NCBI GenBank assembly: GCA_038998335.1
Contig: JAVZHQ010000001.1
Span: 672,609 to 736,608, forward strand
Direction: 5' to 3'
Origin: Candidatus Aenigmatarchaeota archaeon
GTDB taxonomy: Archaea > Aenigmatarchaeota > Aenigmatarchaeia > CG10238-14 > SCSR01
Length of the DNA stretch: 64,000 bases
Below are positions 2,543-41,000 of this stretch, piece after piece; position 1 is the stretch's first letter; each line of letters begins with the position of its first letter. Both the position numbers and the translations under genes were made by a program. The notes under the pieces are model-generated. The model searched no databases. It was not told the origin of the DNA and saw only the letters and a program-made list of their open reading frames with translations.

Positions 2543-2599
2543 CAATTAATTTTTGGCTTTTTCTTGAATTAAATTTAAAAAAAGAAAGAAAAGAAGACA

Positions 2600-3712: not shown

Positions 3713-3791
3713 TAAATACACACCCTGTGTTAGTTATTGAAATACTGTTAAACTTATTTTAATTTAGAGAAATATCTTTAAAAGCTTTTTC

Positions 3792-11110: not shown

Positions 11111-11494
11111 TTAGCAACCACAAGCTTGTGCACATTTTTGGTAATCGGTATAACCTGCATATCTACAAACCTCATCCATAGTAACTTTTCCGTCAATTTC
11201 GCCTAAAATACCATCTATACATCTCGTGTTTGGGATTAAAGCTAGAGGAACTGTGTAATTTACATTTGACTTACCGTCAGACTTGCAATTAGTTGACCAA
11301 GCTTTACATGCTGTTTTAAAGATTGTTTCAGGATCAGAACAAGGTGGACAGCATACGATGTACCACCACCAGATAGCCCCTATAAAGAAAACTAAACATA
11401 TAACAAAAATAAAACAATAGAAAATCTTAAGAATAGTTTTTACTCTGTTGTGCAAATGAAAAGGTGCTAACCTCCACAACATTTTTGTCGGCAA
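11111..11494 (-). CDS. Cys-rich membrane-anchored protein with EF-hand-like Ca-binding loop, paralog of 11467..11781
   Basis: TM ILKIFYCFIFVICLVFFIGAIWWWYIV then CCPPCSDPE...ALIPNTRCIDGILGEIDGKVTMDEVCRYAG aligning with neighbour; N-terminus/start uncertain (28-nt overlap with upstream gene). Confidence 0.4.
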   Translation of the reverse strand: MPTKMLWRLAPFHLHNRVKTILKIFYCFIFVICLVFFIGAIWWWYIVCCPPCSDPETIFKTACKAWSTNCKSDGKSNVNYTVPLALIPNTRCIDGILGEIDGKVTMDEVCRYAGYTDYQKCAQACGC

Positions 11495-11781
11495 TCTGAT
11501 ACTCCAGCATAACTACAGGCTTCTTCCATTGTTACCTTACCATCACCATCAATATCTACACATCTTGTGTCTGGAATTAAAGCTGGAGGAACTATGTAAT
11601 CAGCTGGGTTATCCTGACAGTGGGAAGTTGCCCAACCTCTACAGGCTTGGGTAATGACATACTCTGGATCAGGGCAATGTGGGAAAAACCACAGATACCA
11701 AACAACTACTGCAAGCAAAACAACTACTGCAATTATCAGAATCACAAGATATTCAACTGGTAAAGCAATTCCTTTGCTCAT
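11467..11781 (-). CDS. Pilin-like (class III signal peptide) Cys-rich protein with canonical EF-hand/dockerin-like loop DIDGDGKVTMEE
   Basis: MSKG|IALPVEYLVILIIAVVVLLAVVVWYLWFF (KG then hydrophobic helix with Glu); C-terminal domain with 9 Cys and 12-residue DxDxDGxVxxxE loop. Confidence 0.5.
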   Translation of the reverse strand: MSKGIALPVEYLVILIIAVVVLLAVVVWYLWFFPHCPDPEYVITQACRGWATSHCQDNPADYIVPPALIPDTRCVDIDGDGKVTMEEACSYAGVSDCRQKCCGG

Positions 11782-13721: not shown

Positions 13722-15910
13722 TCGCCAAAATTGCTTGCCCCCATTATATTTTGAGGAATGTAAGGATAGTTTACAACCAGGTCTCTTGTTACATCTATAA
13801 ATAACCTTACAGCATTTCCTAAGAATCCGCACACTGATTTTATCTTGTCGGCATCCGGCACTAGCCCAAGAGTTAAACATTTAACTATATCCATCCAATT
13901 TAAAGCTATTTCGGTAGGTAAGAATAAACTGCAAACTATAGCTGTAATGCAATCACCAAACCAAGCAGCAGCTTCTGCACCTACATAAAAATTAACAACT
14001 CCTTCTGTAGCATAGCAGTAATTCGGAACATCCTTAAACTCTTCTGGTTTTGTTTCGTCTGTGCAAAGAATCGGTTTGACATAAACAGTATCAGGCTCAT
14101 TACCACTAACATAAAGACGTAATTTTGCAAAGCAGGGACTTACCAAATAAAATCTGGGGTTTGATGCAACCACAGAATTTCTTTCTAATTTAATATTTTT
14201 AATTCCCCTTTCTTTGCAACTTTCTGGAAGAGGAAGTCTTGTGACATGATACCCTTTTTGCAAACAAATATAACCTTCTCCACAATAAGTTCCTGTTGTT
14301 GTATAATAAGAAATTTGTTTATCCCAATAAGTTGCACCTATAGGAGTATACATGTCTTGAAAACGAAGCCAAATATAGCCATAAGGTTCTAATTTTTCTT
14401 TTACACCTTCTACAAGATGGTATAAAGTTCCTTTTTTCGCATGAAAAAGATACTTTGCTTCTTTTGGGTCATTAGGTACTTCTTTAAGGTATTCCATAAA
14501 TTTATCACCAAGAACTTCATCAGAAGATAAACCATAATTTTTTATCAAACCTAAAAGTTTAGAATCCTTTGGCATAAGCAGAACACTTCCATCATCAGCC
14601 ATATGCCTTAGCTTTTCGGCAAATTCTATCATAAATTTTTGGGCCTCTTTTTTTGAAGTAACATCAACAGGAAGACCTTCTTTCATCATAGTCTCAACAA
14701 CTTCCCAAGATAATTCTTCATCGTATTTACCAACATACTCTAATTGATTGGCAAGAGTATGCAAACCTTTACCAGCCATAGCCTCGTCCCCAAAAGCTTC
14801 ACCAATTCTTGCTTTTAAAGAATTCCAACCTTCAGAAATTCTTTCCTTGATTCTTTGTCTTAAACTATTTTCGTCTATTTCTATATCCCCACTCTCTGTA
14901 AATATAACTCCGGCTAGATTTTCTGTCCCACCACGCTCTCCAGCTAATATGTATAAAGCATCTTTTACTTCCTTCCCTTCATTTGTACTGATATCAACAA
15001 CCCATTTAACTCCAACTTTTTTAACTTTACCTTGAGTCTGTAGGTCATACATTACACTTTCGAAACCTTCGTCTGCTGTTTCTTCATAAACTCTTGAAAA
15101 TTCTTCTGCAAGCTTCATTGACCTTGAAATTCTTGCTCTTTCAGCAAGTTTTGAAACAGCTTTTGGAATAATTATACTTGCTGTCCTTAAAGCTGGATAA
15201 ACCCATGCAGCATAATAAGCACATTCTCCCAAAGTTAAATCTGTTAATGAAAGACAAACTAATGTTGTAGCTATAGTAACTTCTGCAAAATGTTTAGCCT
15301 CTGTGATGATTACTTTTCCTGCTTTAACCACTATCTTACCAGAGTCTATTAATTTTTTAATTTTTTCATGAGCTACTTTAAAAGCTTCTATTCTTCCTGC
15401 TGCTTTTCCAAATGCATCTTTTATCTTGCTATAACCTGGGCTCATTCCTAGATATAGCATATCTATAGTAAGAGTTACCATCATGTTAGAAGTCCAGGGT
15501 GTGTCTTCTGACCAAGGAATAACCAAAGCTGAAATTGGATCTTGAACTCTTACATTATTAATATAAGTTTCCCACATAGACCATGAATACGAAGGAAATT
15601 CCTCATAATAAACATAAAAGTAAGGATCTGAACCTAAGTTTGCTCCTGAAATTCCTAAGAACTGATGAGTTAAACCTTTTAATCCTGTACTTTGGGCAAG
15701 CATAAAGTTTGTGTAGGCTTCGCCATTTTGACAAGCCAGATCTAAAGCATTGTAAAGTTTTGCAAAATTTTGATCTGCTATATTTTCATAGTAATTCTGA
15801 AAAAGGAATAGATAAATTGCAAAAGCTATTCCTATAGCTATTAACAAGCCTGCCAAAAACTTTAGCATTTGAGCACTTATAGTTAAACCTTTCATTTTAT
15901 ACAACCACAA
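13709..15910 (-). CDS. Large (733 aa) protein with class III signal peptide-like N-terminus; candidate pilus tip/minor pilin-adhesin
   Basis: MWLYKMKG|LTISAQMLKFLAGLLIAIGIAFAIYLFLF then ~700 aa soluble domain with several Cys; in pilus operon. Confidence 0.5.
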   Translation of the reverse strand: MWLYKMKGLTISAQMLKFLAGLLIAIGIAFAIYLFLFQNYYENIADQNFAKLYNALDLACQNGEAYTNFMLAQSTGLKGLTHQFLGISGANLGSDPYFYVYYEEFPSYSWSMWETYINNVRVQDPISALVIPWSEDTPWTSNMMVTLTIDMLYLGMSPGYSKIKDAFGKAAGRIEAFKVAHEKIKKLIDSGKIVVKAGKVIITEAKHFAEVTIATTLVCLSLTDLTLGECAYYAAWVYPALRTASIIIPKAVSKLAERARISRSMKLAEEFSRVYEETADEGFESVMYDLQTQGKVKKVGVKWVVDISTNEGKEVKDALYILAGERGGTENLAGVIFTESGDIEIDENSLRQRIKERISEGWNSLKARIGEAFGDEAMAGKGLHTLANQLEYVGKYDEELSWEVVETMMKEGLPVDVTSKKEAQKFMIEFAEKLRHMADDGSVLLMPKDSKLLGLIKNYGLSSDEVLGDKFMEYLKEVPNDPKEAKYLFHAKKGTLYHLVEGVKEKLEPYGYIWLRFQDMYTPIGATYWDKQISYYTTTGTYCGEGYICLQKGYHVTRLPLPESCKERGIKNIKLERNSVVASNPRFYLVSPCFAKLRLYVSGNEPDTVYVKPILCTDETKPEEFKDVPNYCYATEGVVNFYVGAEAAAWFGDCITAIVCSLFLPTEIALNWMDIVKCLTLGLVPDADKIKSVCGFLGNAVRLFIDVTRDLVVNYPYIPQNIMGASNFGECSW

Positions 15911-16200
15911 TGTCTAAAAAACTCTTCTGCACTATAGCCTGCATCACTTCTTATTTGATCTAAAGAACAACCATAAACATCGTTAATCATCTTTATATCA
16001 TCCTCATCCATATCACGATCATTATCAACATCGCATCCTCTGTTCCTCAATTCCAAACATCCTAACTCAACCAAAGAACCACAACCTGTTTGAGGAGGAA
16101 AAAGGTACAAATAAGCTATTATCGAAACCAAAACTATAAGAGCAACTATAACTATTACTGCAGTGTTTACAGGTAAACTAATCCCCTTGATTTCCACCAC
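15892..16200 (-). CDS. Pilin-like Cys-rich protein with acidic EF-hand-like loop (DVDNDRDMDEDD)
   Basis: MVEIKG|ISLPVNTAVIVIVALIVLVSIIAYLYLF; C-terminal domain with 7 Cys and DxDxDxD loop. Confidence 0.45.
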   Translation of the reverse strand: MVEIKGISLPVNTAVIVIVALIVLVSIIAYLYLFPPQTGCGSLVELGCLELRNRGCDVDNDRDMDEDDIKMINDVYGCSLDQIRSDAGYSAEEFFRHCGCIK

Positions 16201-17316: not shown

Positions 17317-17444
17317 ACAAACTCAACTTTTATTGGAATTATTTTCATGTAAAAGACTGCGATGAAAACAAAAATTAAGATTATAGCCAAGCCTATAACT
17401 ATCCAAAGCAATGTTTGAACATGACTTTCTAACACACCTTTCAT
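17313..17444 (-). CDS. Unannotated mini-pilin (43 aa): MKGVLESHVQTLLWIVIGLAIILIFVFIAVFYMKIIPIKVEFV
   Basis: Hand translation; ATG 17444..17442 overlaps TGA stop of TadC/FlaJ gene (ATGA) and its own TGA overlaps next ATG (ATGA). Confidence 0.4.
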   Translation of the reverse strand: MKGVLESHVQTLLWIVIGLAIILIFVFIAVFYMKIIPIKVEFV

Positions 17445-19486
17445 CTTGGCGCACCCAAAAGCAAAACTTTTAGTATATCACCAAAAACTAAGTAAGTTAC
17501 AAACAAAACAATTACATAAACAATTGTTGAAACTAAGGTAATTTTTCCTATCAAGTTAACTTCGCCTACACGGTCTTCCCCATTTTCTATTCCGTTAACG
17601 AACATCCCTATTAAAAATGATGTTTCTATAACATAAATTCCTAATACAAGCTGGAAAATATCTGGAGAAATCCCTATTCCACCCCTCCAAAGTTTTAATA
17701 AAAAGCTTGCTGAACCAGGAACTTCAACGTTAGACATACTTCCAAACTGCAGAGAAAGAATAGCCAAAATGTTAATAACTATAACTGCCATCGCAACAGT
17801 TACTCCTGCAACCAAAGGAGCCAGGAAAAAACCTAGAAACTTCATGCTAGTTGCTGCCTCGCTTAAAATTTCCTGAATTTGTTCTTCTACTTGGTGCATC
17901 CCTTTCAAGTATCTTGAAATTGTCAAAGAACTTGTTGCAACAGCATTATAACCTTTTCTTGATGCATCAACTATTATTTTCATCACAGAGTAAATCAAAT
18001 CAGAAGGGTAAGCTTTTATAGCTCCTATCTTTTCGTCAAAAACAGATTTTTCAAAAGTCAAACCAAAGAGCTTTATGTTTCTTATTATCTTTTCGTAAAA
18101 GTTTGCTATTTCCATTTTCTTAAGGTTAAGCTTAGCCTTTTCTAGAGCAAACTCTATGGAATGGCCTGACTTAATTTGATGACCCAACTGGAATAAAGCT
18201 TCTCTGAATTCTCTTTCTAAGTTTTTAACCTTTTCTCTCAACTTGAGCTTTGGTTGACTAACCAAAAGACATGCAAAACCAATAGAAATTCCTATTCCTA
18301 AAATTATCGAAGAAGAAGAGATTGTAGGAGTTAAAGTATCAGTAATAACTTTTTTGCATTCATCAGAGCTCAGCTCTAAACCTTTAGGCTTAGAAGCGTT
18401 AAAACCAACAACCTGCCATTCTCTACAAAGAGATGAAAGTGTAGTATAATGATAAAGCATGGGTGCACCAAAAATTAAGAAGGCAAGAAGTATAGGAAAA
18501 ATTATCGTCAAGACCGAAATTTCAATTTTATTTTTTCCGATTTCTATCACTAAGCTATGGGCGCTTCCCTTTATTTGAGGCTGGGAAGTTGCTGGTGGTT
18601 TTCTTTCTAAAGTCTGATTCATTAACCAATAAAGAAGTAAAGGTAGAGCAACATCATAACCCAAAATTAAAAACCAAACGTTAAAAATTCCTTGCATAAA
18701 TATCATAACTATAGGGAAAATTATCAAAGCTATGACTGGTAGAATTATTCCTAAGGAATAGATTAGCATAACTGGCATTCTTAAGCCTAAAGCATAATGT
18801 TTCATTCTTTCAACAGTCCCGTTTAGCAAAACGTCTATTGCTTCATCAATTAAAGCAAGTCTTTGCTCACCAAGCTGGGAAGTAGAACTTTGGAGTATTT
18901 TAACAGTTTCAACAAACTCCTCGTTTTCTTTTCCCCATTTTTCAAGAAAATCGTCTAAAGCGTCATCAACAGAAAAATATCTTTGAGTTTCTAAGTCCCA
19001 AATTATTTTCTTTAAGTCTAAACCTATAACACCTCTTGAGTTTTCTGCCGCAAACCTTACCGCATTCTCTAGGTTAGAAGTTTCTCTCAAGGCAACTGCC
19101 ATGTAAAGAGTTGCCAAAATCATTTCAGTAGAAGCCCTTGCTCTTATTACTTTAACTTTTAAAAAAGGGTAATTGTACAAATAGAATAAAAAGAAAAGGA
19201 AGAGAAAAATTAAGCCAGCTAGTGCTATTGCATTTATTAAACCAAGCAATAAAAGAACAATTAAAACTGGAAAAACGATTAAGAACAAAACAGTAACTAA
19301 AGAGACTGGACCAGAAGGAGAAATGTTCAAATAGCAAAACCTTATTGCAGATTCAAACCTTTGTTCAGTTTCTTTACTTGCTCTAACCTTTAAAATTTTT
19401 TCAGCAAAGTTACAAGCTTTTTCATAAAGAGAAAGTTGTGGCTTCACGCTTTTTAAAAACTCTTGATACTCTTTTGAAATCATCAT
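17441..19486 (-). CDS. Type IV filament platform protein, TadC/FlaJ (T2SS-F) family, 681 aa
   Basis: Polytopic membrane protein with two cytoplasmic helical domains, immediately downstream of and overlapping (ATGA) the FlaI/VirB11-type ATPase; canonical operon partner. Confidence 0.7.
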   Translation of the reverse strand: MMISKEYQEFLKSVKPQLSLYEKACNFAEKILKVRASKETEQRFESAIRFCYLNISPSGPVSLVTVLFLIVFPVLIVLLLLGLINAIALAGLIFLFLFFLFYLYNYPFLKVKVIRARASTEMILATLYMAVALRETSNLENAVRFAAENSRGVIGLDLKKIIWDLETQRYFSVDDALDDFLEKWGKENEEFVETVKILQSSTSQLGEQRLALIDEAIDVLLNGTVERMKHYALGLRMPVMLIYSLGIILPVIALIIFPIVMIFMQGIFNVWFLILGYDVALPLLLYWLMNQTLERKPPATSQPQIKGSAHSLVIEIGKNKIEISVLTIIFPILLAFLIFGAPMLYHYTTLSSLCREWQVVGFNASKPKGLELSSDECKKVITDTLTPTISSSSIILGIGISIGFACLLVSQPKLKLREKVKNLEREFREALFQLGHQIKSGHSIEFALEKAKLNLKKMEIANFYEKIIRNIKLFGLTFEKSVFDEKIGAIKAYPSDLIYSVMKIIVDASRKGYNAVATSSLTISRYLKGMHQVEEQIQEILSEAATSMKFLGFFLAPLVAGVTVAMAVIVINILAILSLQFGSMSNVEVPGSASFLLKLWRGGIGISPDIFQLVLGIYVIETSFLIGMFVNGIENGEDRVGEVNLIGKITLVSTIVYVIVLFVTYLVFGDILKVLLLGAPR

Positions 19487-21723
19487 TTCAACCTAGATTT
19501 TAACCATTCCAACCATTTCTCATAAATCATCTTTGAATCCAAAGCACCAACTTCTTGCCTAACTTGCTCAGAAATTATGTGAAATGCATCGTTAGCGTCG
19601 CAAACAAAGTCTGCTTCAAGAATTTCTGGCTTGTTTAACCTTTCTGCATACTCAACTAAAGTCTGCTTAATTTTTGCTCTTAGTAAAATATTATCCCAAA
19701 CATCATCCCATCTTCCGTGCCATTCCCTTACTCTTTTAGCAATTTCGTTCAAAACATAGGATTCTCCATCTATTAAAGTATCAGTTGGTTTAAGTTTGTC
19801 TTCTTTTGCTGAGTATTGCATCAACGGAACAAAACCTCCCTCATCTAAAGGATCCTGCTTCCAATGTTTTCTCACTTCTGTTAATTCAACGACTCTTCTG
19901 AATCTATGTAAGCCATCAGGAGAGCGAAGCATGTTACAAATTGTGATTAAATCGATTGCCTTAAAGCTGGTTGGAGCTACACCCAAATCATGAACTACTC
20001 TGTCATAAACTCCGTAAGGAGACTCGCCGTGAATTGTTCCTGCAACAACATTAGCTAAAGCACCGATCCTCATTGCCTCAAAAAGAACTGTACTCTCTAC
20101 TGAGCGTACTTCTCCTACTATCAAGCAAGAATCTCCCAACCTTAAAGCAGTCCTTAAGGCTTCGTCAGCAGGTACTTCAGTTTCAACTCTTGTTATTACA
20201 GAGCGAGATTTTAGCCTTTCAATGTTATATCCTAGCTGTCTTAAATGAGATACAGGAAGCTCCAAAGTATCCTCTTGTATAATAATCCTAAACTTTCTCA
20301 TTATCTCCAAAAGTAAGGAAGAAAGTAATGAAGTTTTTCCTGAACTTCTTCCTCCTGCTATAAGAATTGCTCTTCCTCCATCAACAACAAAACTCATTAG
20401 TCCTGCGTACAAAGGATCAAACATTCTTGCCTTCAAAAACAAAGGGAATGTCCAGGGCCTTTCCCTATGCCTTCTGAAAGCAAAGGCTAAACCTTCAGGG
20501 CTTAAAGTTCTTGTTATTGCTGCAACTCTTGCCCTTCCTCCTGGAACTTCTAACTCGCAATCTAAAACTGGGTTTGCCTCGTCTAAAGGCCTACCAGAAT
20601 AAAGCCTAAAACGAGTTGCCCATGCTTCTGCATCTTCCTTAGTTGGTATTAAATTTGTTTCACATTCTTCAAAATCTGAGTGAAAAATAAAAATTGGTGT
20701 TAAGCCTATGGGTGAATTTATGTAAATGTCTTGGATTTTCTCATCGCTCAACAAAAGCTCGAGTACACCAAAACCTGCTGTGTAACGCGCTAAAAGCATT
20801 GCAAGCTCTTCAATTTCCTCTGGATTTAAATCCAAATTCATGCTTCTTCCAATTTCTCTAACCAAATCCTTTCCTATGTTGAAGAAAATTTCCCTTGCTT
20901 TTTGTGGTTCAGTAATTTCTGTTTCTGTAGGCTTATGAGCAGCTAGATAATTTTTTGTTCTGTCAAGAACCATAAACTTTTTCTCGTTTAGCTTGAATTC
21001 CGGAGGTGTTATATGGTAGAGCAGCCTAACTTTTCCTGGAACTTTGAAAATTTCAACCACAACATTTCCTGGTAAGTAGTACTTATCTAAAAGCTGACCT
21101 TCCCTTGGAGGAAGAAGCATAAAGCGAGTAAGCATAAAGTTTGGTTTTGTTAATGGATGGAAAATTTGCCTGTAAATTTTTCTATCCCCTGGTTTATAGC
21201 CTTCTAGCTTTTCTTTTGCCATTTTTATTAGCTTGCAAGAAGAAAGAATTTTTTCTATAGGCAATAAAGCATTTTCTAGGTAATGGGTATAACACTTTTT
21301 CATTTCTGGTGGAGCTTTTTCTTCGTTTATTTTTGCTGCTAAGATCATTTTTTGTAGTCTTAAATAAGCTGCAACAGGATCTTTTCTCAAAAGCTCAAGA
21401 ATTAGAAATTGCAAGGCAGAAAACCTTTTTGAGAATAAATTCTCACAACCAGGACAAACAAGTTTTTCCATGGTTAAAAACTTCTCCTCGTTTAAAATTT
21501 TGTTGTAAGCTTCTGCTATTTCTCTTAAAATTTTTACTTGCTCAAAGTCATATTCATTTTCCCTAGTTTCTGCAAGTATTATCCTTTCAACATTTTTTAC
21601 TTCTAAAAGTTTGTCTATGGTTTTTGCCATACAAGCTTGAAAATCCTCTATGCTTGAACCATAAATACAGCCCAAGCAATTTACTCTTAAAGTATTCTCC
21701 CTAAGCTCGTAATCGCAGACCAA
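19483..21723 (-). CDS. Type IV filament assembly ATPase (FlaI/TadA/VirB11/GspE superfamily) with ~300-aa N-terminal extension
   Basis: Walker A GGRSSGKTSLLSSLL; family-typical IVGEVRSVE box and ALANVVAGTIHGESPYGVYDRV His box region; start is TTG at 21723 (next ATG at ~21630). Confidence 0.85.
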   Translation of the reverse strand: MVCDYELRENTLRVNCLGCIYGSSIEDFQACMAKTIDKLLEVKNVERIILAETRENEYDFEQVKILREIAEAYNKILNEEKFLTMEKLVCPGCENLFSKRFSALQFLILELLRKDPVAAYLRLQKMILAAKINEEKAPPEMKKCYTHYLENALLPIEKILSSCKLIKMAKEKLEGYKPGDRKIYRQIFHPLTKPNFMLTRFMLLPPREGQLLDKYYLPGNVVVEIFKVPGKVRLLYHITPPEFKLNEKKFMVLDRTKNYLAAHKPTETEITEPQKAREIFFNIGKDLVREIGRSMNLDLNPEEIEELAMLLARYTAGFGVLELLLSDEKIQDIYINSPIGLTPIFIFHSDFEECETNLIPTKEDAEAWATRFRLYSGRPLDEANPVLDCELEVPGGRARVAAITRTLSPEGLAFAFRRHRERPWTFPLFLKARMFDPLYAGLMSFVVDGGRAILIAGGRSSGKTSLLSSLLLEIMRKFRIIIQEDTLELPVSHLRQLGYNIERLKSRSVITRVETEVPADEALRTALRLGDSCLIVGEVRSVESTVLFEAMRIGALANVVAGTIHGESPYGVYDRVVHDLGVAPTSFKAIDLITICNMLRSPDGLHRFRRVVELTEVRKHWKQDPLDEGGFVPLMQYSAKEDKLKPTDTLIDGESYVLNEIAKRVREWHGRWDDVWDNILLRAKIKQTLVEYAERLNKPEILEADFVCDANDAFHIISEQVRQEVGALDSKMIYEKWLEWLKSRLK

Positions 21724-21775: not shown

Positions 21776-22171
21776 ATGGCAGAAGAAAAGCCAATACCTA
21801 TTAGGCCAATTATAAACGAGATTGTTAGAAGGTTGAACGAAAGCGAAAGAAGAATAAGGGATATGGAAATAAGAATGGAAAGAATTGAAACAACTCTTTC
21901 TACAATAGAAGAAAAGCTACTCAACCAACTAAACGATTTAAAAATAGATGTAACAAAAGTTGGAAAGAAGCTTGAAAGTTTTGTTGAAAAAATTAATTTT
22001 TACGAAAGCGAGATTTTAAGGCTAAACAAGGAATTGGCAAAAGCTGCAACTAAGGCTGATTTGAAAAAAGTTGAAACTTATGTTGAGATTTTAAACCCAG
22101 TAACTTCTAAGTTTGTCACGAGAGAAGAAATGGAAAGAGCTTTAGAAGAAATTAAGAAGAAGAGGTTTTAA
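21776..22171 (+). CDS. Coiled-coil protein, 131 aa, unknown function
   Basis: ATG start; heptad-rich, charged; divergent from pilus operon. Confidence 0.45.
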   Translation: MAEEKPIPIRPIINEIVRRLNESERRIRDMEIRMERIETTLSTIEEKLLNQLNDLKIDVTKVGKKLESFVEKINFYESEILRLNKELAKAATKADLKKVETYVEILNPVTSKFVTREEMERALEEIKKKRF

Positions 22172-22212: not shown

Positions 22213-22884
22213 ATGCCTGTCCCTTTAACAAAAAAAGAAGAGGTTTTACCAAAACCTTCTGTTTTAAGTAGAATAGAGGAACTTTCTTCTCGTGGTTTGT
22301 CAGAAATTGAAATTATCGATACTTTGAGAAAAGAAGGTTACTCTCCTGACGAGATAGATAAAGGCTTGACAGAAGCTTTGAAGTTTAGTGCTACTCAACC
22401 AAAAGCTCCACCTCTACCAAAACCAAAAGAAGAACCGAAAAAGCTTCCTTCGCCGCCTGAACCACCAAAACTTCCTGCAAGCTTACCTGCTCCTCTTGAG
22501 CTTCCTTCAGAACCTGTACCGCAAATTCCTGAAATTTCTGTTCAGCAAGATTATTTTTATCCTGAATATACTACTGAAGAATATATCGACTACATGATAA
22601 AAGAAAAGACAGAAGAGCTTAACAGAAAAATAAGTGAGTTTATGCTTAAACAGAAAGAATTAGAAGCAAAGATTTTAAGCTTACATGAAAAGTTGAGCGA
22701 AGTTTCTCAAACAAAAGTTACCGAGCAGCAACTAATAGGGACAAAAATAGATTCTTTAAAAGAAATTGTAGAAGAAATGAATATAAGAGTTGAGAGTTTG
22801 GAAAAAGCTTTTAAGGAAACACTACCTGCACTAATCGAAAGCATAAGGGCTTTAAGCGAACTAACACAAAAACTTAAAGTTTAA
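22213..22884 (+). CDS. Protein with small N-terminal domain, Pro-rich linker (PLPKPKEEPKKLPSPPEPPKLP) and C-terminal coiled coil, 223 aa
   Basis: ATG start; composition/pattern only. Confidence 0.45.
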   Translation: MPVPLTKKEEVLPKPSVLSRIEELSSRGLSEIEIIDTLRKEGYSPDEIDKGLTEALKFSATQPKAPPLPKPKEEPKKLPSPPEPPKLPASLPAPLELPSEPVPQIPEISVQQDYFYPEYTTEEYIDYMIKEKTEELNRKISEFMLKQKELEAKILSLHEKLSEVSQTKVTEQQLIGTKIDSLKEIVEEMNIRVESLEKAFKETLPALIESIRALSELTQKLKV

Positions 22885-22885
22885 A

Positions 22886-23107
22886 CTATTCGAACATCTC
22901 GTAAATTTTTAATCTAGCAAGATCTTCGATTGCTTTTTCTCTTCCTTCTCTGAGAATTTTTATTTTCCTTTCTAAAGCATCCACAACATTATCTTGAGCT
23001 TGAGGAATGTAACTTGCTGTCTGTGCTTCATAACTTGCTAACAATCCTAACAATTTTGATACATGCTCTTTTGATTTGTTAAGATACTTATCTCTCATAT
23101 TCACCAC
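22886..23107 (-). CDS. Small helical hypothetical protein (73 aa)
   Basis: ORF track only. Confidence 0.3.
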   Translation of the reverse strand: MVNMRDKYLNKSKEHVSKLLGLLASYEAQTASYIPQAQDNVVDALERKIKILREGREKAIEDLARLKIYEMFE

Positions 23108-23140
23108 TTAAAAGTAATAAGAATAGAAAAGTATTTAAAT

Positions 23141-23836
23141 CTATAACTCATGGCTTGTTTTTAAACTTCTCATTTGCTCCCTTACTGTATCTAGTCTATC
23201 TTTAAGGGTTTGAATTTTTTTATTAATCTTATTCATTTTATCAGCAGCTCGAGGGTCGCCAGGTTTTATGTTTGAAAGTTCCTCATAAAGCCTTGCTATT
23301 TCCATGGTTAATATCTTTTCTTCTTTGCTTAGCCTGCCCATGCTTTTTCTATAATACTTGTAAAGATCTGCTCTACTTCCCCATTTTCTTAAGTAGGCCA
23401 AAGAATACAACGCCCATCCTCCTATAAATAAAATAAGAAATATCGTGTAAGCTGCAACAGTACCAAGAGCCATTGTGATATAAACATAAGTTATGAAAGC
23501 CTTGCTTGGCAAAGTACTGAAAGCAAAGGCAAAAGCTACTACTATTTCTATAGCAGGAGTTCTCCAGAAAATTCTTAATTGCCTTAAAATTCCTAGAATA
23601 ATAGCATAAAGAGCGAGAAAAGGAACCATGAAGTTAAAAATAAAGTTCCTAATGTTTTGAGTAGGCATCCATTCCTCTGGCAAACCAAAAACTTTTGTCC
23701 AAAAATATTCAACACTCCAAAAGTCGCCATATTCTTGTGCTTTTACTGAAACTGCTAAAGATGAGAAAAAAATTAAAAAAAGAAATAATAAGCATAGTTT
23801 TTTACTCATCCTTATCAATATTATTTTCTTTTTCAA
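23141..23836 (-). CDS. Membrane protein of local paralog family (signal peptide + F-x-F-x-x-P-F-L motif + 3-4 TM) with C-terminal cytoplasmic coiled coil
   Basis: NFIFNFMVPFLALYAIILGIL motif; C-terminal KINKKIQTLKDRLDTVREQMRSL coiled coil. Confidence 0.5.
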   Translation of the reverse strand: MKKKIILIRMSKKLCLLFLFLIFFSSLAVSVKAQEYGDFWSVEYFWTKVFGLPEEWMPTQNIRNFIFNFMVPFLALYAIILGILRQLRIFWRTPAIEIVVAFAFAFSTLPSKAFITYVYITMALGTVAAYTIFLILFIGGWALYSLAYLRKWGSRADLYKYYRKSMGRLSKEEKILTMEIARLYEELSNIKPGDPRAADKMNKINKKIQTLKDRLDTVREQMRSLKTSHEL

Positions 23837-23895
23837 AAATTTAAATCATGTTCAAATTTCATTAGCATCTGAAAAACTTAAGAAAAATTAACGAA

Positions 23896-24633
23896 ATGTT
23901 TAAATTTCTTTATTTTATAACCATCATTATGCCGAAATCTTTAGTTCAGGAAATGTTCCAAGAAGCAAAAAAGTTTGTTAGGTTACATAACAAAAAGGGA
24001 GCAAGTGATGTAGAAATCAACGAAATTCTCAGAAAAAAACCTTTTGTCCAAGGAGAGTTTATTATAGATACTGTGGTAGAAGTTAATTCTAAGTATCTTG
24101 AGAAAATCGGGGTTTCAGAAAGAAGTTATGATTACAAAAGTTTGCAACAAGCAACTAAGGAATGGAAAAAGGTTATTAGAGAAAGAGAAGGCTTAGTTCC
24201 TTCTGCCAATACTTATCCTTGGTATTTTGGTTCGACAAAACTTAATCGTAAAATTTCCTTAACAGATAAAAAAATAGAAAATTTTGGAAAAAAATACAAA
24301 CTTGAATGTGTTTATTGCACAGAAAAGGATAAATGGGGCGAGAAACAAATAAGCCACGTTTGCTTAGTCAGTCCTTTAATCGATTTGGATGAAGCAACCC
24401 TTTATACTACTGGATACTATGTAGGAACAACTTTAGATTTGAACGAAACTAGAGATGGAAAATTGTACGAAAGTATAGGGAAGGAAATTTATGGTTTGAA
24501 AGAGAAGACTTGGGTTCTGGGAAGAAAAATAAACTCTCTTAGAAGAAGGTGGAGAGGATACTGGGAAGAAATAGACAGAAGGATGGACGAAGCTTTAGAT
24601 GCATCTTCTATAGATTCCTTTGAAGAAGAGTAA
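23896..24633 (+). CDS. Hypothetical protein 245 aa (possible Cys/His metal site CVYCTEKDKWGEKQISHVC)
   Basis: ORF track; no recognisable family. Confidence 0.4.
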   Translation: MFKFLYFITIIMPKSLVQEMFQEAKKFVRLHNKKGASDVEINEILRKKPFVQGEFIIDTVVEVNSKYLEKIGVSERSYDYKSLQQATKEWKKVIREREGLVPSANTYPWYFGSTKLNRKISLTDKKIENFGKKYKLECVYCTEKDKWGEKQISHVCLVSPLIDLDEATLYTTGYYVGTTLDLNETRDGKLYESIGKEIYGLKEKTWVLGRKINSLRRRWRGYWEEIDRRMDEALDASSIDSFEEE

Positions 24634-24646
24634 CGTAAAAAGTTAA

Positions 24647-25276
24647 TTACACAGCACCTGTGGCCATTTCTCTCTGTTTTCTTTCTATAAATTGAAGTTC
24701 GGCTTGTATTGCATCTATTTGTGATTTTAAGTCTGCTGCTTTCTTCCATTGTCTAGCTTGTACTGCTTTTTGATGCTCTATTAAGAGTTGTTGTAATTTT
24801 TGTGTGAGCTCTGCAACAGATTTAGTTGTAGTAAGAACAAGAAACTTTTCAGGTTTTTTGAGAAACCTTTTTGTCATAACAGCAGAACCAACAATAAATA
24901 TAACTGTCCATACAATAATGGAATACATACCTAAAATCCCAAACATACCCCAAATAAACCATCTAAGCGGGGTTGCCATCAGCACTCCAACCCAAGATAA
25001 AGCTATTAATAAGTTAAGGTTTTTATCAGTAACAAACCAGCCTGTGGCCATATTAATTATTGCTAACACCATAGCAGTTGAACCTATAAGAGGAAGCATA
25101 AACATCCATATAAAATTAGGAAAGAATAGATCCTCTGCCGGAAGACCCGTGATATCAGAAAGGTACTGAACTAAACTCTTTCCTTCCCAATAGATTGGCA
25201 CAAAATTTACTGCAGCACCAATAACAAAAAGGATAATTGCCAAATAAACTAAAGTTCTAGTTTGTCCTTTTCCCAT
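24647..25276 (-). CDS. Membrane protein of local paralog family with C-terminal coiled coil
   Basis: FFPNFIWMFMLPLIGSTAMVLAII motif; C-terminal QKLQQLLIEHQKAVQARQWKK..IQAELQFIERKQREM. Confidence 0.5.
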   Translation of the reverse strand: MGKGQTRTLVYLAIILFVIGAAVNFVPIYWEGKSLVQYLSDITGLPAEDLFFPNFIWMFMLPLIGSTAMVLAIINMATGWFVTDKNLNLLIALSWVGVLMATPLRWFIWGMFGILGMYSIIVWTVIFIVGSAVMTKRFLKKPEKFLVLTTTKSVAELTQKLQQLLIEHQKAVQARQWKKAADLKSQIDAIQAELQFIERKQREMATGAV

Positions 25277-25367
25277 AAATTTTATTTGAACTTTTAAATT
25301 TATATTCTTGACAATCCACTTTTAGAGAAGCGAAGATTTAAAAAATTTTTTAAACATTAATTAATCG

Positions 25368-26042
25368 ATGAGCATATACGAAAAAGAAAGTGCAATAGAT
25401 AGATTTGAAACTCATATAAGACTATTAAGCGAGGATTTGGACTTTCTTCCAGAAACTATAAGCAGCTTTAGCGAGCTTGCTGAATACTTTCCGGATTTGA
25501 AAAATAGAGAAGAATATAAAAGAGTTGAAGAAATTTTAAACTCACTAGCAAACCCATTAAAAAGAATTGGTTACAAACTTTACATAAAAAATTTAAACAA
25601 GTATGCAGGAAGACTTGTTGCATCTGCTAAGGAAAAGATAGAAGAATTAAGAAAATATGAGAAGCCTGTGGAAATCAAGAAAGAAGTAATAGCGGTTAAA
25701 ATTCCCCCTTCCCCTTGGTATAAGGTAATAGAAGATGTAAACAAACTTTCAGATAGTATGTGGATAGATAGAACAATAATCAGAAACGTAATCCCAATGT
25801 TTGAAGACCTTATTGCTGACCTGCAAGATTTGGGAGCTCCAAAAGAGTTTTACGAAGATTTAAACCAACACTTGGAATATTTATTGTCAGTGGAAGATGC
25901 AGAATTAACAATTCCTCAATTTAAAAAACTTACCCCTAGCTATATTTCCAAAGACAGACAATTGAGAAAATTGCTTACGCAAATAAAACATTACGCAGAA
26001 AGGAAAATTGAGAAAGAGAAAAGAAAAGAAATGCTATTATAA
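25368..26042 (+). CDS. Hypothetical soluble protein, 224 aa
   Basis: ORF track only. Confidence 0.4.
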   Translation: MSIYEKESAIDRFETHIRLLSEDLDFLPETISSFSELAEYFPDLKNREEYKRVEEILNSLANPLKRIGYKLYIKNLNKYAGRLVASAKEKIEELRKYEKPVEIKKEVIAVKIPPSPWYKVIEDVNKLSDSMWIDRTIIRNVIPMFEDLIADLQDLGAPKEFYEDLNQHLEYLLSVEDAELTIPQFKKLTPSYISKDRQLRKLLTQIKHYAERKIEKEKRKEMLL

Positions 26043-26073
26043 TTTATTTCTGCTTAACTAACAAAAATTAATT

Positions 26074-26562
26074 ATGAGTATCTTTGATTTTTTGGCTCAA
26101 GAATCTTTACAATCAATTTTTTACAATTTTTTCCTTCCTTTTATAGTTATGTTTGCAATTCTTTTTGGATCTTTGGAAGGAATAAGAATTTTCAACAGAA
26201 AAATTAACTTGATTCTTTCCTTAGCAATAACTTTTGCTGCAGCTTATGGTGGAGCTTTTTCATTTTTCTCTCAATATCTTTTGATTCTCGGCCCTTACAC
26301 TGCTTTTGGAGCTTTCATACTAGTTTTCTTTGTTGGTGTTTTAATCTGGGCATTTGGAAGAGGAAAAGAAATCTATTATGAGAGTGCAGCTCCACACAAA
26401 AAACTAGAAAAAATAAACAAGGAAATAGAAAAGCTTTATGAAAAGTATAGAAGAGAAAACAATCCAGAGAAAAAAAGAGCCATAGACAGGCAAATAATTG
26501 AACTTGAAAGAATGAGAGAACATTTGAGAAGGGAAGTAGAATCAAGAAGTTTATATTCTTAA
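26074..26562 (+). CDS. Membrane protein of local paralog family with C-terminal coiled coil, 162 aa
   Basis: FYNFFLPFIVMFAILFGSLEGIRIF motif; KKLEKINKEIEKLYEKYRREN tail. Confidence 0.5.
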   Translation: MSIFDFLAQESLQSIFYNFFLPFIVMFAILFGSLEGIRIFNRKINLILSLAITFAAAYGGAFSFFSQYLLILGPYTAFGAFILVFFVGVLIWAFGRGKEIYYESAAPHKKLEKINKEIEKLYEKYRRENNPEKKRAIDRQIIELERMREHLRREVESRSLYS

Positions 26563-26580
26563 CAAAACAAATTTTAAATA

Positions 26581-27126
26581 ATGGCAGATTTGTTTACGCC
26601 AATAATTGAACAGTTAGACAAATTGGGTTTTTTCAATTTTTTCTTTCCTTGGCTTGTGACTCTTGCTATAATGTACGCTATCTTACAGAAATCAAAAATC
26701 TTAGGAGAATCTGTTTTAATAAATGGTATTGTAGCTTTAAGCATAGCTTTTCTTGTTTTTGCTTTTCCTGTTCTTTCTGGCGTAAGCCTTTCACTTCCTT
26801 TAAGCATGCTTTTTACCCAAACATTTTCTATTTTATTGTTTTTCTTTGTTGGTTTCTTGCTAGCAAGTTTGTTTTACCCAAACTTAACCCAATTCCTTAT
26901 CCAACAATTCACAAGAAGAACAACTTTGTATGCTATGATTGCTTTGGGTATAGCTTTGTTTATTACTAGCGGTTTAATCGGAACTTTTTGGTCGCAAACA
27001 ACTAAGCCTCCTGAACCTGGTAAAGCTGTTTTGCCACCAGATGTTGTTTATTTAACAGTAGGTATAATATTATTTGTAGTGGTTTTAATCATAGCAGGCT
27101 CTGTAGCAAGGATGGGAGGAAGTTAA
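26581..27126 (+). CDS. Membrane protein of local paralog family (tandem copy 1 of 3), 181 aa
   Basis: MADLFTPIIEQLDKLGFFNFFFPWLVTLAIMYAILQKSKILGES; 5-6 TM. Confidence 0.5.
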   Translation: MADLFTPIIEQLDKLGFFNFFFPWLVTLAIMYAILQKSKILGESVLINGIVALSIAFLVFAFPVLSGVSLSLPLSMLFTQTFSILLFFFVGFLLASLFYPNLTQFLIQQFTRRTTLYAMIALGIALFITSGLIGTFWSQTTKPPEPGKAVLPPDVVYLTVGIILFVVVLIIAGSVARMGGS

Positions 27127-27678
27127 ATGGCAGACCCTTTCACAACAGTAATTTTAAAGTTGAAAGGAACAGGTTTTTTTGAGTTTATGCTACCTTTCAT
27201 GCTTACCTCTGCAATTTTCTATGGTTTGCTAAGAAAATCACAAATATTTGGAGACCCAGACAAAAACATTGCTGTTAACGCTGTAGTTGCCTTAACAGCA
27301 GGTTTTATGGTTTGGGCTTATCCTATTCTTGCAGGAGTAAGCTTTATGGACAAGCTTCCTGTTTTTTTTGCTCAAGCAATGAGTGCAATGCTTGTTGTTC
27401 TAGTTGGTTTACTAACAACAAGCATGTTTTTGCCTCCTGATTTACCAAGCAAGTTAGAAGCAAAATTGGGAGGTAGAGCTTTTGGTATAATTTTGATAGC
27501 AGGAATTTTGATAGGCGGAGGAATTTTGGTAGCTAGCGGTTTAATAAACGTTTTCTTCCCTGCAGGAGGTTTAGAGATTACAGGACTTTCTGAAGATACT
27601 ATTTTAACAATAGCTATAGTAATTCTCTTTTTCATAACTATTCTTGTGATGGTTTGGGGTGGAGGAGGTAAGAAATAA
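27127..27678 (+). CDS. Membrane protein of local paralog family (tandem copy 2 of 3), 183 aa
   Basis: MADPFTTVILKLKGTGFFEFMLPFMLTSAIFYGLLRKSQIFGDP. Confidence 0.5.
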   Translation: MADPFTTVILKLKGTGFFEFMLPFMLTSAIFYGLLRKSQIFGDPDKNIAVNAVVALTAGFMVWAYPILAGVSFMDKLPVFFAQAMSAMLVVLVGLLTTSMFLPPDLPSKLEAKLGGRAFGIILIAGILIGGGILVASGLINVFFPAGGLEITGLSEDTILTIAIVILFFITILVMVWGGGGKK

Positions 27679-28250
27679 TGGACTATTATGGAATTACAGA
27701 ATTTTTGAAGAACATAGGAGTTTTTGAGTTTTACTTGCCTTTTGTCATACTTTTTGGTTTGCTTTTTGGTTTGCTAGAAAAATCAAAAATAATTCCTGAA
27801 AGAAGGATAAACATAATAATAGCATTAGCCTCTGCCTTTTTCATAATGGCGTATACTCCTGCTGGCATAACTCTAACTCAATTCTTCTCAAACTTTTTCG
27901 CTAACGTTGCAGTTGTAATGGTTACTCTTCTTTCCTTTGTGCTAATGATTTATCTAATAATACCCATAACAGGAAGAAAAGAACCAGAATTTCCTAAAGC
28001 TGCTAAGTACATAGCTTTCTTAATAGCCTTAATAGTAGTTGGAATTTTCTTAACATCAGGTGGCTTATCCATATTTTTACCGCAGCTTGCCGAAACAACA
28101 GTTCCTATTCCTGGCTTAGAAATAGATCCTCAAGACTTAGTCATAATCATCTTGATTGCCATAACAATCTTGGTAATTTACTTTGTAAGTAAGGGTGAAA
28201 AAGAAGAGAAAAAAGAGGGTAAAGTCTTTAAGTTTGTTCAAGAGGATTAG
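27678..28250 (+). CDS. Membrane protein of local paralog family (tandem copy 3 of 3), 190 aa
   Basis: MDYYGITEFLKNIGVFEFYLPFVILFGLLFGLLEKSKIIPERR. Confidence 0.5.
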   Translation: MDYYGITEFLKNIGVFEFYLPFVILFGLLFGLLEKSKIIPERRINIIIALASAFFIMAYTPAGITLTQFFSNFFANVAVVMVTLLSFVLMIYLIIPITGRKEPEFPKAAKYIAFLIALIVVGIFLTSGGLSIFLPQLAETTVPIPGLEIDPQDLVIIILIAITILVIYFVSKGEKEEKKEGKVFKFVQED

Positions 28251-38001: not shown

Positions 38002-41000
38002 TTAAGGGTCTTTTAAACCATTTTCTGTAATCTTAAAAACACATTCTCCTTCTGGTAAATCAGGAGCATCTACTAATCTAGCAATTCTTGCCCCTTCTTT
38101 TCCTCTTCTCAAGTAAATTCTATAAGTTGAGTTATGAACTAAATAACCGTTTGCCAAGAAGTTTGCGCAATCTGTTTCTATATCTATTAATTTTTCATTG
38201 TTTTGCAACTTTTTTATCGAGTAAATTTTTTCGAAGTTTAAGCCTAATAAACTACCAAAGATTTTGTTCACTTCTTCATACTTCTTACACAATTCTTCAA
38301 GCTCAGGATAGCTAACGTTATTTTCTAAATGCTTGAAATCATAGCTTATTCCAATTTCTTTAAGTAGTTGCATGAGCTTTTTCCTTTTCAAAGGAATTTT
38401 TTCTTCTTTTCTTAGCTTTCTATCTTCAAGCTTTTTGTTTTTTCTAGAAGATGTGAAACCAATCTCTTTAAACTTGTTTGGATTAACCATCAACCTATAA
38501 TATATTCCATGCTTATTTCGAACTATAGAGATAGTTGAATGAATACCAAGTCTTAATAGCAAAAGTTTAACGAAAACAAGGAAATCCTTATCTTTCATCG
38601 TTAAGTTAGCCATGCTGTTTATGCTTCCTTCTGCGTCAAACAAACCTTTAACAAAAGCTTTAATTACGCTTTTTCTTTCAAAGAACAACTCATAAATATT
38701 CTCAATTAGAAACTTGAAAACATTAGCTACATACTTGTTTGCAAACTTGAGCTCAAAACAATTTTTATTCTTAACCTTTGAAATTTTTGGTTCTACGTTA
38801 AAAACACTTTTGAACAAGCTAGCATAAAACTCTAGAACTTCCTTATTTTCATCTTTTATTTGGATAGAATTGTTATAAAAGTCCTTAGAACCATCGCCGA
38901 CAAAATATCCTAAAATCTGAGCTAGCTCTTCTGTCAGCTCTCTAACTTCTTTAACATCCTTATGCTTAACTGTTTCTTTAACTTCATACTCAATTTTTCC
39001 TATAAACCTTTCGATTCTTCTTATAATCTTTAAGGAAGTTGGAAGTGAAGAGTTTAAAATTCCTCTAAGATGTCTAGCTCCTATTCCTAAAAAGTTTTTG
39101 CATTCAGCATTATGCTTAATTGAGAAGATTTGTTGAAGTCTTTTTTTAACTTTCTCTGGGTTTTTGATTACGTATACCTTTTCTGGATTAAACTTCTTTA
39201 TCTTAAGCTTTTTCTCAGGAACATCGATTAATTTTGGAAGAATAAGATAATCTCCAGTTTTTAAATCCTTACTTTTAACTTCTTTAAAACCTTCTTCTGT
39301 AAAGATAAAAACAGTATGGTCTGGTGAAACTCGAAGGTTATGATTAATTTCTAATATTGTTGGCCTTTCAGTTTCAACTTTTTCCACAACTTTATAAAAT
39401 CTAAAACCATCTTTATAACCAAGTATATTCATAGGATTATGAACATCTTTTATCTTCTTCATTCCTTCGTTTGTTACTATTAAAGAGTTAGAATCCACAC
39501 AAAGATGCCCAAGCACATGACCCCCTACAGGAGCTGTTGGGTCGCCAAATAAAACATCAGGCCTTGCCATTACCTGATTGGTAATATAAACTGCTAAATT
39601 GTAAGCATCAGCAAGCTTTTGTAAATGATGCAAATGTTTGTTTAATTTTTGCTGTCTTTCAGCAAGCTCTCCTCTTCCTATGAATTCTGCTCTGAAATGA
39701 GAAGTAAGAGAATTATGAACCAAAAAACCGTTAGCTACATAACACTCATAGCCTGGTACTGTCATATCATAAACAAAAGTTGGTAGTTTTTTCAGTTCTT
39801 TTACTTTTTTTATCTTGAAAAAACCTAAGTTAGAGTTAACTATTTTCTTCAAGAATTCTAATTCTTTACAACTTCCAATTTTTTCAAAATTCTCTATAAG
39901 TTTTTTGAGAGTAGGTCTTTGTGGATAGTAGAATTTTCTGTAGGTTGAAAGCCCAAAACCAAATTTATTTTGAACCGTATAAACTGAAACTCCAAGTTTT
40001 TTTGCTATAACTTCTATTACATCCATAGAAATAGGAATAGGATCTTTGTGTAAGAATTTCTTATTTAAGAATTCAACCATTTTATTGAGCTTAGCGAGCT
40101 TCTTTTTGTGATTAAAACTAATGAATTTTTGAAAATTCATTATACTTTGACAATCTATTATTCTAATTTCATAAGTTTTTCCCCAACGATTCTTACAGGT
40201 CTTAATTTCTGTACTTTCTATACCAAACCTTAATAATGCATACTTTACTTGTTCTACTAATTTTTTACTTGCAGAAGCAAATATGATATGATGGATTCTG
40301 GCCTTTCTGGTAATTTTTTCCTTCCCTCTTCTGAAAATGGTATTATAAGGCTTTCCAAAATATACCGAACCTTCTGCATCAAATAAACCTCTCAAAAAGG
40401 CTCCTAATTCTTCATCAGTAGAAGTTAGAATTTCCTTTGGAATTTCTTTTTCTTTTGAACTTTTTCTTAAACCCAAACTCGTAAGAAATTCTATAAGTTT
40501 AACAGAATTTATATCGAAATAATAACAATTTTTGTTCTTAGCTCTTTTAATAGGCCTTGGAGAGAAAGAAAGTTTTCTAGCCAGAAAATGGTAATATTTT
40601 AAGAGTGTTTTGTTACTGTCCCAAAAATCTATCTTATTCCTACTTATCCCACCATCTCCCAAGAAATAACCTATAAACTCTAGCCATTCCTTCCCCAAAA
40701 ATTTTTTCCCTTTAACCTCTAATTTTTTAATTCCAACAACATAATCTCCTCTTTTTAACTCTTTAGCAAATTTCTCTTTTATCCCATCTTCATCTAAAAC
40801 AAAAAACCTATGGTTTGGTGTAACTTTAATCTTTCTCGTACCAACATCTATTTCTACCATCTTTTCAGGTAGCTTCTTGTATAAAGCTGAAACAAAAGCT
40901 GGTTCTTGAGAAAAATTGTTTAGGTCAACTGATAATAACGGATTTTCTGACATGACTTGTATTGGTTTAACGATATGACCATTAGCTGTTATTATATTTG

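Follow-up and report, generated by a model that had tools for sequence, protein, structure and literature searches.

An unnamed family of small membrane proteins encoded beside a type-IV-filament ATPase in Aenigmatarchaeota

What are the six membrane proteins that are encoded close together in an Aenigmatarchaeota genome, beside the gene for a type-IV-filament ATPase, and do they belong to that ATPase's machinery? The Aenigmatarchaeota are DPANN archaea with small genomes. They are tiny and probably symbiotic, their surface machines are presumed to mediate contact with a host, and most of their genes are unannotated. We analyzed a 64-kb stretch of DNA from a Candidatus Aenigmatarchaeota archaeon (hereafter, the window), which is AT-rich (about 32% G+C). 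A preliminary description of this DNA had proposed that six of its open reading frames (ORFs) are paralogs of one uncharacterized family. ORF calling recovered all six at the same coordinates, and we refer to them as A to F (Table 1). As explained below, D and E are a conserved pair whose genes are nearly always found with the genes for the ATPase and for two coiled-coil proteins, CC131 and CC223. This gene context suggests that D and E are probably undescribed parts of a pilus-type ATPase machine.

Pairwise BLAST comparisons place the six proteins in two groups. D, E, and F are clearly related to each other (82 bits for D versus E, and about 44 bits for either of them versus F), and so are A and C (54 bits). 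A versus B gives 30 bits, and comparisons across the groups give 23 to 30 bits over about 40 residues, so that BLAST alone is clear only within the groups. We gathered relatives separately for each group (68 sequences of the D/E/F type and 26 of the A/B/C type) and aligned the two profiles with hhalign, which gave a probability of 95.3% and E = 2.4e-8 over 82 columns. These columns correspond to the first three transmembrane (TM) helices, TM1 to TM3. We also compared a hidden Markov model (HMM) for each group to all of the ORFs in the window. The D/E/F-only model finds A (E = 1.2e-6) and C (E = 2.1e-5), and the A/B/C-only model finds F (E = 5e-9), E (E = 9e-8), and D (E = 5e-6). Because the profiles align and the group-specific models find each other's members, we conclude from these sequence comparisons that the six ORFs are real paralogs of one membrane-protein family with a common three-helix membrane core, as had been proposed. 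Neither model finds a seventh family ORF in the 64-kb window at E ≤ 10.

The most divergent member is B, which is tied to the family only via A and the A/B/C profile and which is found only in the closest relatives; C, for its part, has orthologs at other loci. The motif that the preliminary description gave for the six proteins is a fair description of them but a loose one, as only the proline and one phenylalanine are invariant. Proteins identical to A and B, and a protein that is 99% identical to E, have been deposited from metagenome-assembled genomes of Aenigmatarchaeota; all of them are annotated as "hypothetical protein." (The database model for the sequence that is identical to A, P0121, has 222 amino acids and begins at an internal ATG at 23809, instead of at the TTG at 23836.)

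We then examined the neighborhood of E in 70 species-representative loci, in which we called ORFs and assigned them by using the proteins of the window. The recurrent order of genes is a platform-like gene (-), the 745-residue ATPase (-), CC131 (+), CC223 (+), a variable segment, D (+), E (+), in some loci F (+), and then diphthine synthase (-) and Trm5 (+). In 59 of 67 loci, E is immediately preceded by D, and the median gap between the two is 0 nucleotides (nt); 43 of 63 loci have F as the next gene after E (median gap, 11 nt). In the window, C, D, E, and F follow one another in head-to-tail orientation, and the spacings are 18, 0, and -1 nt. The median gaps between CC131 and CC223 and between CC223 and D are each about 38 nt, and CC223 and D are at most 120 nt apart in 20 of 29 loci. 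CC131 and the ATPase gene are divergently oriented, and the distance between them is 52 nt in the window and about 40-50 nt across loci.

For 35 of the E-anchored loci, at least 9 kb of upstream sequence was available, and we counted linkage in these. The ATPase, CC131, and CC223 are all within 10 kb of D/E in 34 of the 35, versus 27 of the 35 for the platform gene. The linkage is reciprocal. Among metagenome loci that were anchored on the ATPase, 49 of 57 have CC131 and 37 of 42 have CC223; and of the 28 loci for which at least 7.5 kb was available on that side, 23 have one or more family members and 21 have two or more. The preliminary description had linked the six genes to a pilus locus. 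That link is relevant, but it is specific to the 745-residue ATPase, CC131, and CC223, and not to the pilus locus in general.

The association also persists through rearrangements. In one clade (L064, L066-L069, and L075), the platform gene is not adjacent to the ATPase, CC131-CC223-D-E is kept, and the opposite flank of the ATPase is occupied by an A-type member. In a divergent clade from the ATPase-anchored set, the family block is inverted yet still abuts CC223. (In L068, the A-type member at 5640-6611 (+) has 323 amino acids and an extended N-terminal membrane and external region; its gene is convergent with the ATPase gene, and reverse gyrase is encoded further upstream.)

The number of family members per locus varies from two to seven, which puts the six in the window near the top of the range. 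Only the numbers of A-, B-, C-, and F-type members vary. Most other loci lack the segment that lies between CC223 and the C-D-E-F run of the window, and D comes straight after CC223 there. As this is so in 20 of 29 loci, the genes for A, B, and C, along with the soluble ORFs that begin at 23896 and 25368, are an insert in the lineage of the window. The preliminary description had grouped these two soluble ORFs with the other soluble and coiled-coil proteins nearby. Two of the latter, CC131 (at 21776) and CC223 (at 22213), turn out to be conserved partners; but homologs of the ORFs at 23896, 25368, and 28247 were found only in the closest relatives (L007, L008, and L010), and no homolog of the ORF at 22886-23107 (-) was detected in any locus.

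Table 1. The family genes in the window and the genes around them (aa, amino acids; topologies are predicted)
Feature	Coordinates	Strand	Length	Description
Platform-like protein	17441..19486	-	681 aa	Polytopic, TadC/FlaJ-like; gene overlaps the ATPase gene
ATPase	19483..21723	-	~745-746 aa	Type-IV-filament (GspE/FlaI/CpaF-type) secretion ATPase with ~300 extra N-terminal residues
CC131	21776..22171	+	131 aa	Soluble coiled coil; first gene of the CC131-CC223-D-E run
CC223	22213..22884	+	223 aa	Three-helix N-terminal domain, Pro/Gln-rich low-complexity linker, coiled coil, C-terminal helix
Variable insert	22886..26042			Between CC223 and the C-D-E-F run; holds A, B, and soluble ORFs 22886-23107 (-), 23896-24633 (+), and 25368-26042 (+)
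A	23141..23836	-	231 aa as listed; probably 222 aa, from 23809	Signal-peptide-like N-terminus, 3-TM core, cytoplasmic helical tail
B	24647..25276	-	209 aa	N-terminal anchor helix, 3-TM core, cytoplasmic helical tail
C	26074..26562	+	162 aa	N-terminal amphipathic helix, 3 TM helices, C-terminal helix-turn-helix hairpin; opens the tight C-D-E-F run
D	26581..27126	+	181 aa	5 TM helices; conserved partner gene directly upstream of E
E	27127..27678	+	183 aa	5 TM helices; best-conserved member
F	27678..28250	+	190 aa	5 TM helices, charged C-terminal tail; accessory paralog; bears a weak DUF2070-like signal

We predicted the topology of the proteins from hydropathy, the positive-inside rule, and AlphaFold2 models of E and C. 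(The model of E has a predicted local distance difference test score, or pLDDT, of 76.8, with values of about 90 for residues 1-60. The model of C has a pLDDT of 73 and helices at residues 3-9, 12-37, 42-58, 61-127, and 131-161.) The predicted common module is an amphipathic helix of 12-15 residues that lies outside the membrane and has a conserved glycine at its end, followed by TM1-TM3. TM1 carries the motif FxFxLPF, with a conserved proline, and leads into a basic, conserved cytoplasmic turn (LxKSxIF); TM2 opens with a conserved asparagine. D, E, and F are predicted to have five TM helices and a C-terminus inside the cell. Beyond the common module, they have a TM4 with Ser-Gly at its end, an external loop that is acidic and contains a near-invariant aspartate, TM5, and a short basic tail. 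In A, B, and C, there are three predicted TM helices, and TM3 runs on into a helix-turn-helix hairpin that would be cytoplasmic, given the positive-inside rule. A also has a signal-peptide-like N-terminus (...SVKA, then QE) and then about 30 residues that are predicted to be extracellular and that include a GLPEEW motif; B has an N-terminal anchor. Both of these fit with the segment before TM1 lying outside. Overall, these predictions agree with the architecture in the preliminary description, which comprised an N-proximal amphipathic segment, three to five TM helices, three coiled-coil tails, and one signal peptide.

Two signatures mark E: AIFYGLLRKSxIFG, where TM1 ends on the cytoplasmic side, and AAFMVWxYP, within TM2. 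In the alignment of E proteins, the turn after TM1 is the most conserved stretch. As for the exposed parts, they are tiny: an N-terminal segment of 15-35 residues and short loops. One family member from a metagenome, P0280 (317 amino acids), has a signal peptide and, as a C-terminal fusion, a Peptidase_S74 intramolecular-chaperone domain (E = 8e-17), a type of domain that normally brings about trimerization. As a single case, this hint of oligomerization is too thin to use, and P0225, a second apparent fusion, seems to be a chimera of the assembly.

How widespread is the family? It is not a local oddity. An exhaustive profile search found 2,323 clusters (at 50% identity) with E ≤ 1e-3, of which 542 have E ≤ 1e-10, and nearly all of the 150 relatives listed have 170-210 amino acids. 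The family seems to be essentially confined to Aenigmatarchaeota. All of the labelled sources are from this phylum, except for one "Micrarchaeota" genome, which has an identically organized locus, and three oddly labelled contigs (Heimdallarchaeota, Planctomycetota, and Calescibacterium). We found no evidence for the family outside of Aenigmatarchaeota among the matches with names, which are the minority. A third homolog search, with remote members, gave just 14 proteins and no new taxa, and looking up the clusters did not add any names.

Throughout the phylum, D and E are conserved and single-copy; the A, B, and C types have a patchy distribution and low conservation. Identity within the phylum is about 45% for E, as compared to about 60% for the ATPase, 55% for housekeeping enzymes, 32% for the platform protein, and 26% for A. 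The preliminary description viewed the cluster as a diversifying membrane or envelope system, and the A, B, C, and F types do vary in copy number. If the family were part of a rapidly diversifying surface system, for instance for recognizing hosts, then the two to seven copies per locus and the low identity of the patchy A type would be expected, and this lineage is thought to be host-dependent. But so little of these proteins is exposed, and the core pair is so well conserved, that we consider this explanation very unlikely. Also, the variable tails are cytoplasmic by the positive-inside rule.

We then asked if the family is related to any known one. No model in Pfam or NCBIfam matches any of the six proteins above its threshold, no solved structure matches the family by sequence, and the model of E has no fold match in PDB or BFVD. 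All of our sources describe the members as hypothetical, so the family is unnamed and lacks a named domain, just as the preliminary description had said. Literature searches under DUF2070, COG3356, and Aenigmatarchaeota pili gave no description of it.

The sole recurrent match is to DUF2070 (PF09843), which is hit by 10 of 69 close members and by 21 of 64 remote members. These matches are always colinear, with residues ~12-170 aligning to positions ~38-175 of the 561 in the profile, which is the whole of the five-TM region. None of the scores reaches the gathering threshold (30 bits), and the highest, for P0019, is 27.1 bits. From the window, F scores 20.0 bits, and A, B, C, D, and E have no match to DUF2070 in the Pfam search. 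Family members have 160-230 amino acids and lack about 390 positions of the profile, whereas a DUF2070 protein has about 560 amino acids, including a large C-terminal part. Judging by this sequence similarity, the family is probably a distant relative of the N-terminal membrane part of DUF2070, and is not a member of DUF2070. DUF2070 is itself uncharacterized, and our literature searches gave no paper on it.

Several other assignments were considered and rejected. First, these proteins are not type IV pilins or archaellins: the leader is an amphipathic helix of 15 residues that is neutral to acidic, rather than short and basic; Thr, Leu, Ile, or Ala precedes the conserved glycine, not Lys or Arg; and 3-5 TM helices follow, with no globular domain. 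Second, they are not fragments of a filament platform protein (T2SSF/TadC/FlaJ, PF00482), as none of A to F matches T2SSF in Pfam, and hhalign of the D/E/F profile against the platform family from the same locus gave a probability of just 0.2%. Third, they do not resemble prepilin peptidases (Peptidase_A24): there is no match in Pfam or NCBIfam, no GxGD motif, and no second conserved aspartate. (The only near-invariant aspartate is D157 of E, in the external loop.) Fourth, the tails of A and C have weak Pfam matches to Oxa1 superfamily insertases (YidC/DUF106, Get1/CHD5, and EMC3/TMCO1), with E = 0.036 for CHD5/Get1 and E = 0.074 for EMC3_TMCO1, but these score 13-14 bits, versus cut-offs of 27-29 bits, and are confined to the tail. 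What A and C do share with Oxa1, Get1, and EMC3 is a TM helix that continues as a helical hairpin in the cytoplasm. This is a resemblance of shape only: the hairpin is C-terminal in our family and lies between TM1 and TM2 in Oxa1, and D, E, and F lack it. Finally, neither PHROGs nor BFVD supports a viral or mobile origin.

If D and E work with their neighbors, then what are the neighbors? The ATPase is easily recognized: it matches T2SSE in Pfam (49.7 bits, with a cut-off of 24.9), and its top matches in PDB are afGspE (2OAP, 9e-24), followed by CpaF and FlaI. The platform assignment is weak. The 681-residue protein has marginal matches at the two expected repeats (T2SSF, E = 0.026; SpoIIIAB, E = 0.0034), and the top PDB match of its profile is GspF, with E = 0.14. 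A paralog at 467-2545 (-) is 33% identical to it, and both have about 690 amino acids. A layout with two platform genes has been described for archaeal type-IV-filament loci of "system 1" and "4A," including some from DPANN, and the two platform-like genes in the window resemble it. Together with pilin-like genes, the ATPase and the (weakly assigned) platform indicate a type-IV-filament system. The candidate pilins, at 11111-11781 (-) and 15892-16200 (-), have in translation a pilin-like hydrophobic N-terminus and a cysteine-containing C-terminal part, with a DxDxDG loop that leads to weak EF-hand matches. Also nearby, at 3792-8714 (-), is a cysteine-rich protein of 1640 amino acids with an N-terminal signal, a C-terminal anchor, and no Pfam domain at E ≤ 1e-5. 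Its sequence suggests that it may be an adhesin or surface protein of the pilus locus.

In CC223, two elements are conserved: the N-terminal three-helix domain (GFSExEIIDxLRKEGYSxxEID) and the C-terminal helix (SLEKAFKExLPALIESVRxL), whose core LPALIESVR is nearly invariant in the alignment. Both look like docking elements. Neither of them matches a family model; CC223 has only generic, sub-threshold matches, to trimeric coiled coils and to small three-helix domains (RecX_HTH1/UBA-like). Other coiled-coil matches of the neighboring proteins in Pfam, NCBIfam, and PHROGs (to SMC, prefoldin, Snapin, and others) are compositional. We found no sequence similarity between the tails of A, B, and C and either CC131, CC223, or the interleaved ORFs.

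From the family's homology, architecture, distribution, and neighborhood, we infer the following physical interactions and functions. We tentatively favor the view, which the gene context suggests, that this phylum has its own type-IV-filament machine with an accessory membrane subcomplex made up of D and E, their paralogs, and the coiled-coil proteins. As the genes for D and E are translationally coupled, the two proteins might form a stoichiometric hetero-oligomer in the membrane. With the cytoplasmic proteins CC131 and CC223, which we take to be co-transcribed with them, they would build an accessory scaffold or a stator-like subcomplex. This would dock onto the 745-residue ATPase, probably via its extra N-terminal region, and also onto the platform protein. 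The D/E complex would gain further or exchangeable subunits, specific to a lineage, in the form of F and the A, B, and C types, with the latter three bringing their own coiled-coil hairpin, fused to the three-TM core. We favor this view because of the operon-like packing of the genes, the reciprocal linkage, its persistence through rearrangements, and the conservation of the cytoplasmic turn of E.

By analogy, the role of the subcomplex might be comparable to that of ArlX/ArlCDE and ArlF/G in the archaellum, or of PilMNO in bacterial pili. In those systems as well, genes for small membrane proteins and for cytoplasmic coiled-coil proteins lie beside the ATPase and platform genes. However, ArlF/G and PilN/O are bitopic proteins whose globular domains are external, while our proteins are polytopic with almost nothing outside of the membrane. 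Another precedent, by description, is subclade 4D of Thermoproteales, in which a type-IV-filament ATPase is paired with an unclassified protein with 4-5 TM helices (arCOG05557 or arCOG13890) and there are no pilins (Makarova et al. 2016, PMC4858521). As in our loci, small, unrecognized 4-5-TM proteins lie beside the ATPase, and some loci have no adjacent pilins or platform; the difference is that most of the Aenigmatarchaeota loci also have a platform-like gene. An accessory subcomplex fits with this precedent. It also fits with the expectation in the literature that accessory proteins are specific to each subsystem and match the extra domains of the ATPase.

Some of our results weigh against this proposal. 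To begin with, all of the functional support comes from gene context within one phylum, and we found no similarity, in sequence or fold, of the family to known accessory proteins of pili or archaella. On the other side of D/E, diphthine synthase (Dph5; in 50 of 52 loci) and Trm5 (42 of 52) are as syntenic as the ATPase is, so plain conservation of gene order explains part of the linkage. Co-transcription is not universal either, since the window and its relatives have unrelated ORFs or opposite-strand paralogs between CC223 and D. (A scan for bacterial promoters and terminators gave the same counts as for shuffled sequences; because the models are bacterial, this is uninformative for an archaeon.) One solitary family member is encoded beside a rhomboid protease and an amino-acid permease, and some loci with both the ATPase and the platform have no detectable coiled-coil or family genes nearby. 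As an example of the latter, at 2000-8000 of L136 (and similarly in L130 and L141), a ~57% identical ATPase and a platform gene are flanked on the other side by form-III RuBisCO, AMP phosphorylase, and a beta-propeller protein. The module is thus not universal.

These same results bear on another explanation, namely that the family has an unrelated job in the membrane, such as a small channel, a subunit of a transporter, or membrane homeostasis, and that it lies next to the ATPase because gene order is frozen within the phylum. The constant adjacency of Dph5 and Trm5, which are not pilus genes, is what this explanation would predict, as are the solitary member beside the permease and the protease and the ATPase loci that lack the family. 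It also agrees with the faint resemblance that recurs between the family and the membrane part of DUF2070, for which no link to pili is known. Nevertheless, we think it is unlikely. Frozen gene order would not readily account for an adjacency to the ATPase and CC223 that outlasts an inversion and the loss of the platform gene, or for the tight packing on the same strand as CC131 and CC223. And neither sequence nor fold comparisons match the family to any transporter or channel.

Alternatively, D and E (with the A type in some clades) might themselves be the membrane conduit or platform for the 745-residue ATPase. In this scenario, the machine would carry out secretion or uptake independently of pilins, with CC131 and CC223 as a cytoplasmic ring, and the classical platform paralogs would separately serve the pilin genes. 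This could explain why the ATPase is more steadily linked to CC131, CC223, D, and E (34 of 35 loci) than to the platform (27 of 35), and why, in the L064-L069/L075 clade, it is flanked only by family and coiled-coil genes; and the ATPase of subclade 4D, with its unclassified 4-5-TM protein and no pilins, would be a precedent. However, most loci, including the window, retain a platform-like gene that overlaps the ATPase gene, with pilin-like genes near it, and a conduit of this kind would have no evident substrate. Given also the 0.2% probability from hhalign for kinship of D/E/F with the platform family, we consider a conduit quite unlikely. There is a similarly low probability that the ATPase, the two coiled-coil proteins, and D/E (along with the A type in some clades) make up a self-contained translocation machine of a new type, in which the polytopic family replaces or supplements the TadC/FlaJ platform. 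Instead of pilins, such a machine might carry proteins, lipids, DNA, or other cargo across the membrane of these host-dependent archaea.

Elsewhere in the window, we noticed two further loci. At 38002-42861 (-), a RadA/Rad51 recombinase of 1619 amino acids includes three intein-splicing stretches and three LAGLIDADG endonuclease domains, so this radA carries multiple inteins. At 2600-2881 (-) is the gene for an Alba-like chromatin protein, which adjoins a free-standing ORF (2924-3721, on the minus strand) whose translation looks like a LAGLIDADG homing endonuclease.

In summary, six "hypothetical proteins" can now be described as a defined family with a sequence signature, a topology, a core pair (D and E), variable paralogs, and a fixed partnership, at the level of the genome, with an atypical type-IV-filament ATPase and two coiled-coil proteins. 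If this partnership is physical, as it would be in the accessory subcomplex that we favor, then D and E would add new accessory or platform-like subunits to the repertoire of archaeal type-IV-filament systems, and the LRKSxIFG cytoplasmic turn of E, the LPALIESVR helix of CC223, and the N-terminal domain of the ATPase would be defined targets for study. If the partnership is not physical, few unnamed membrane proteins of the phylum are as well conserved as this family, which still merits a family model.

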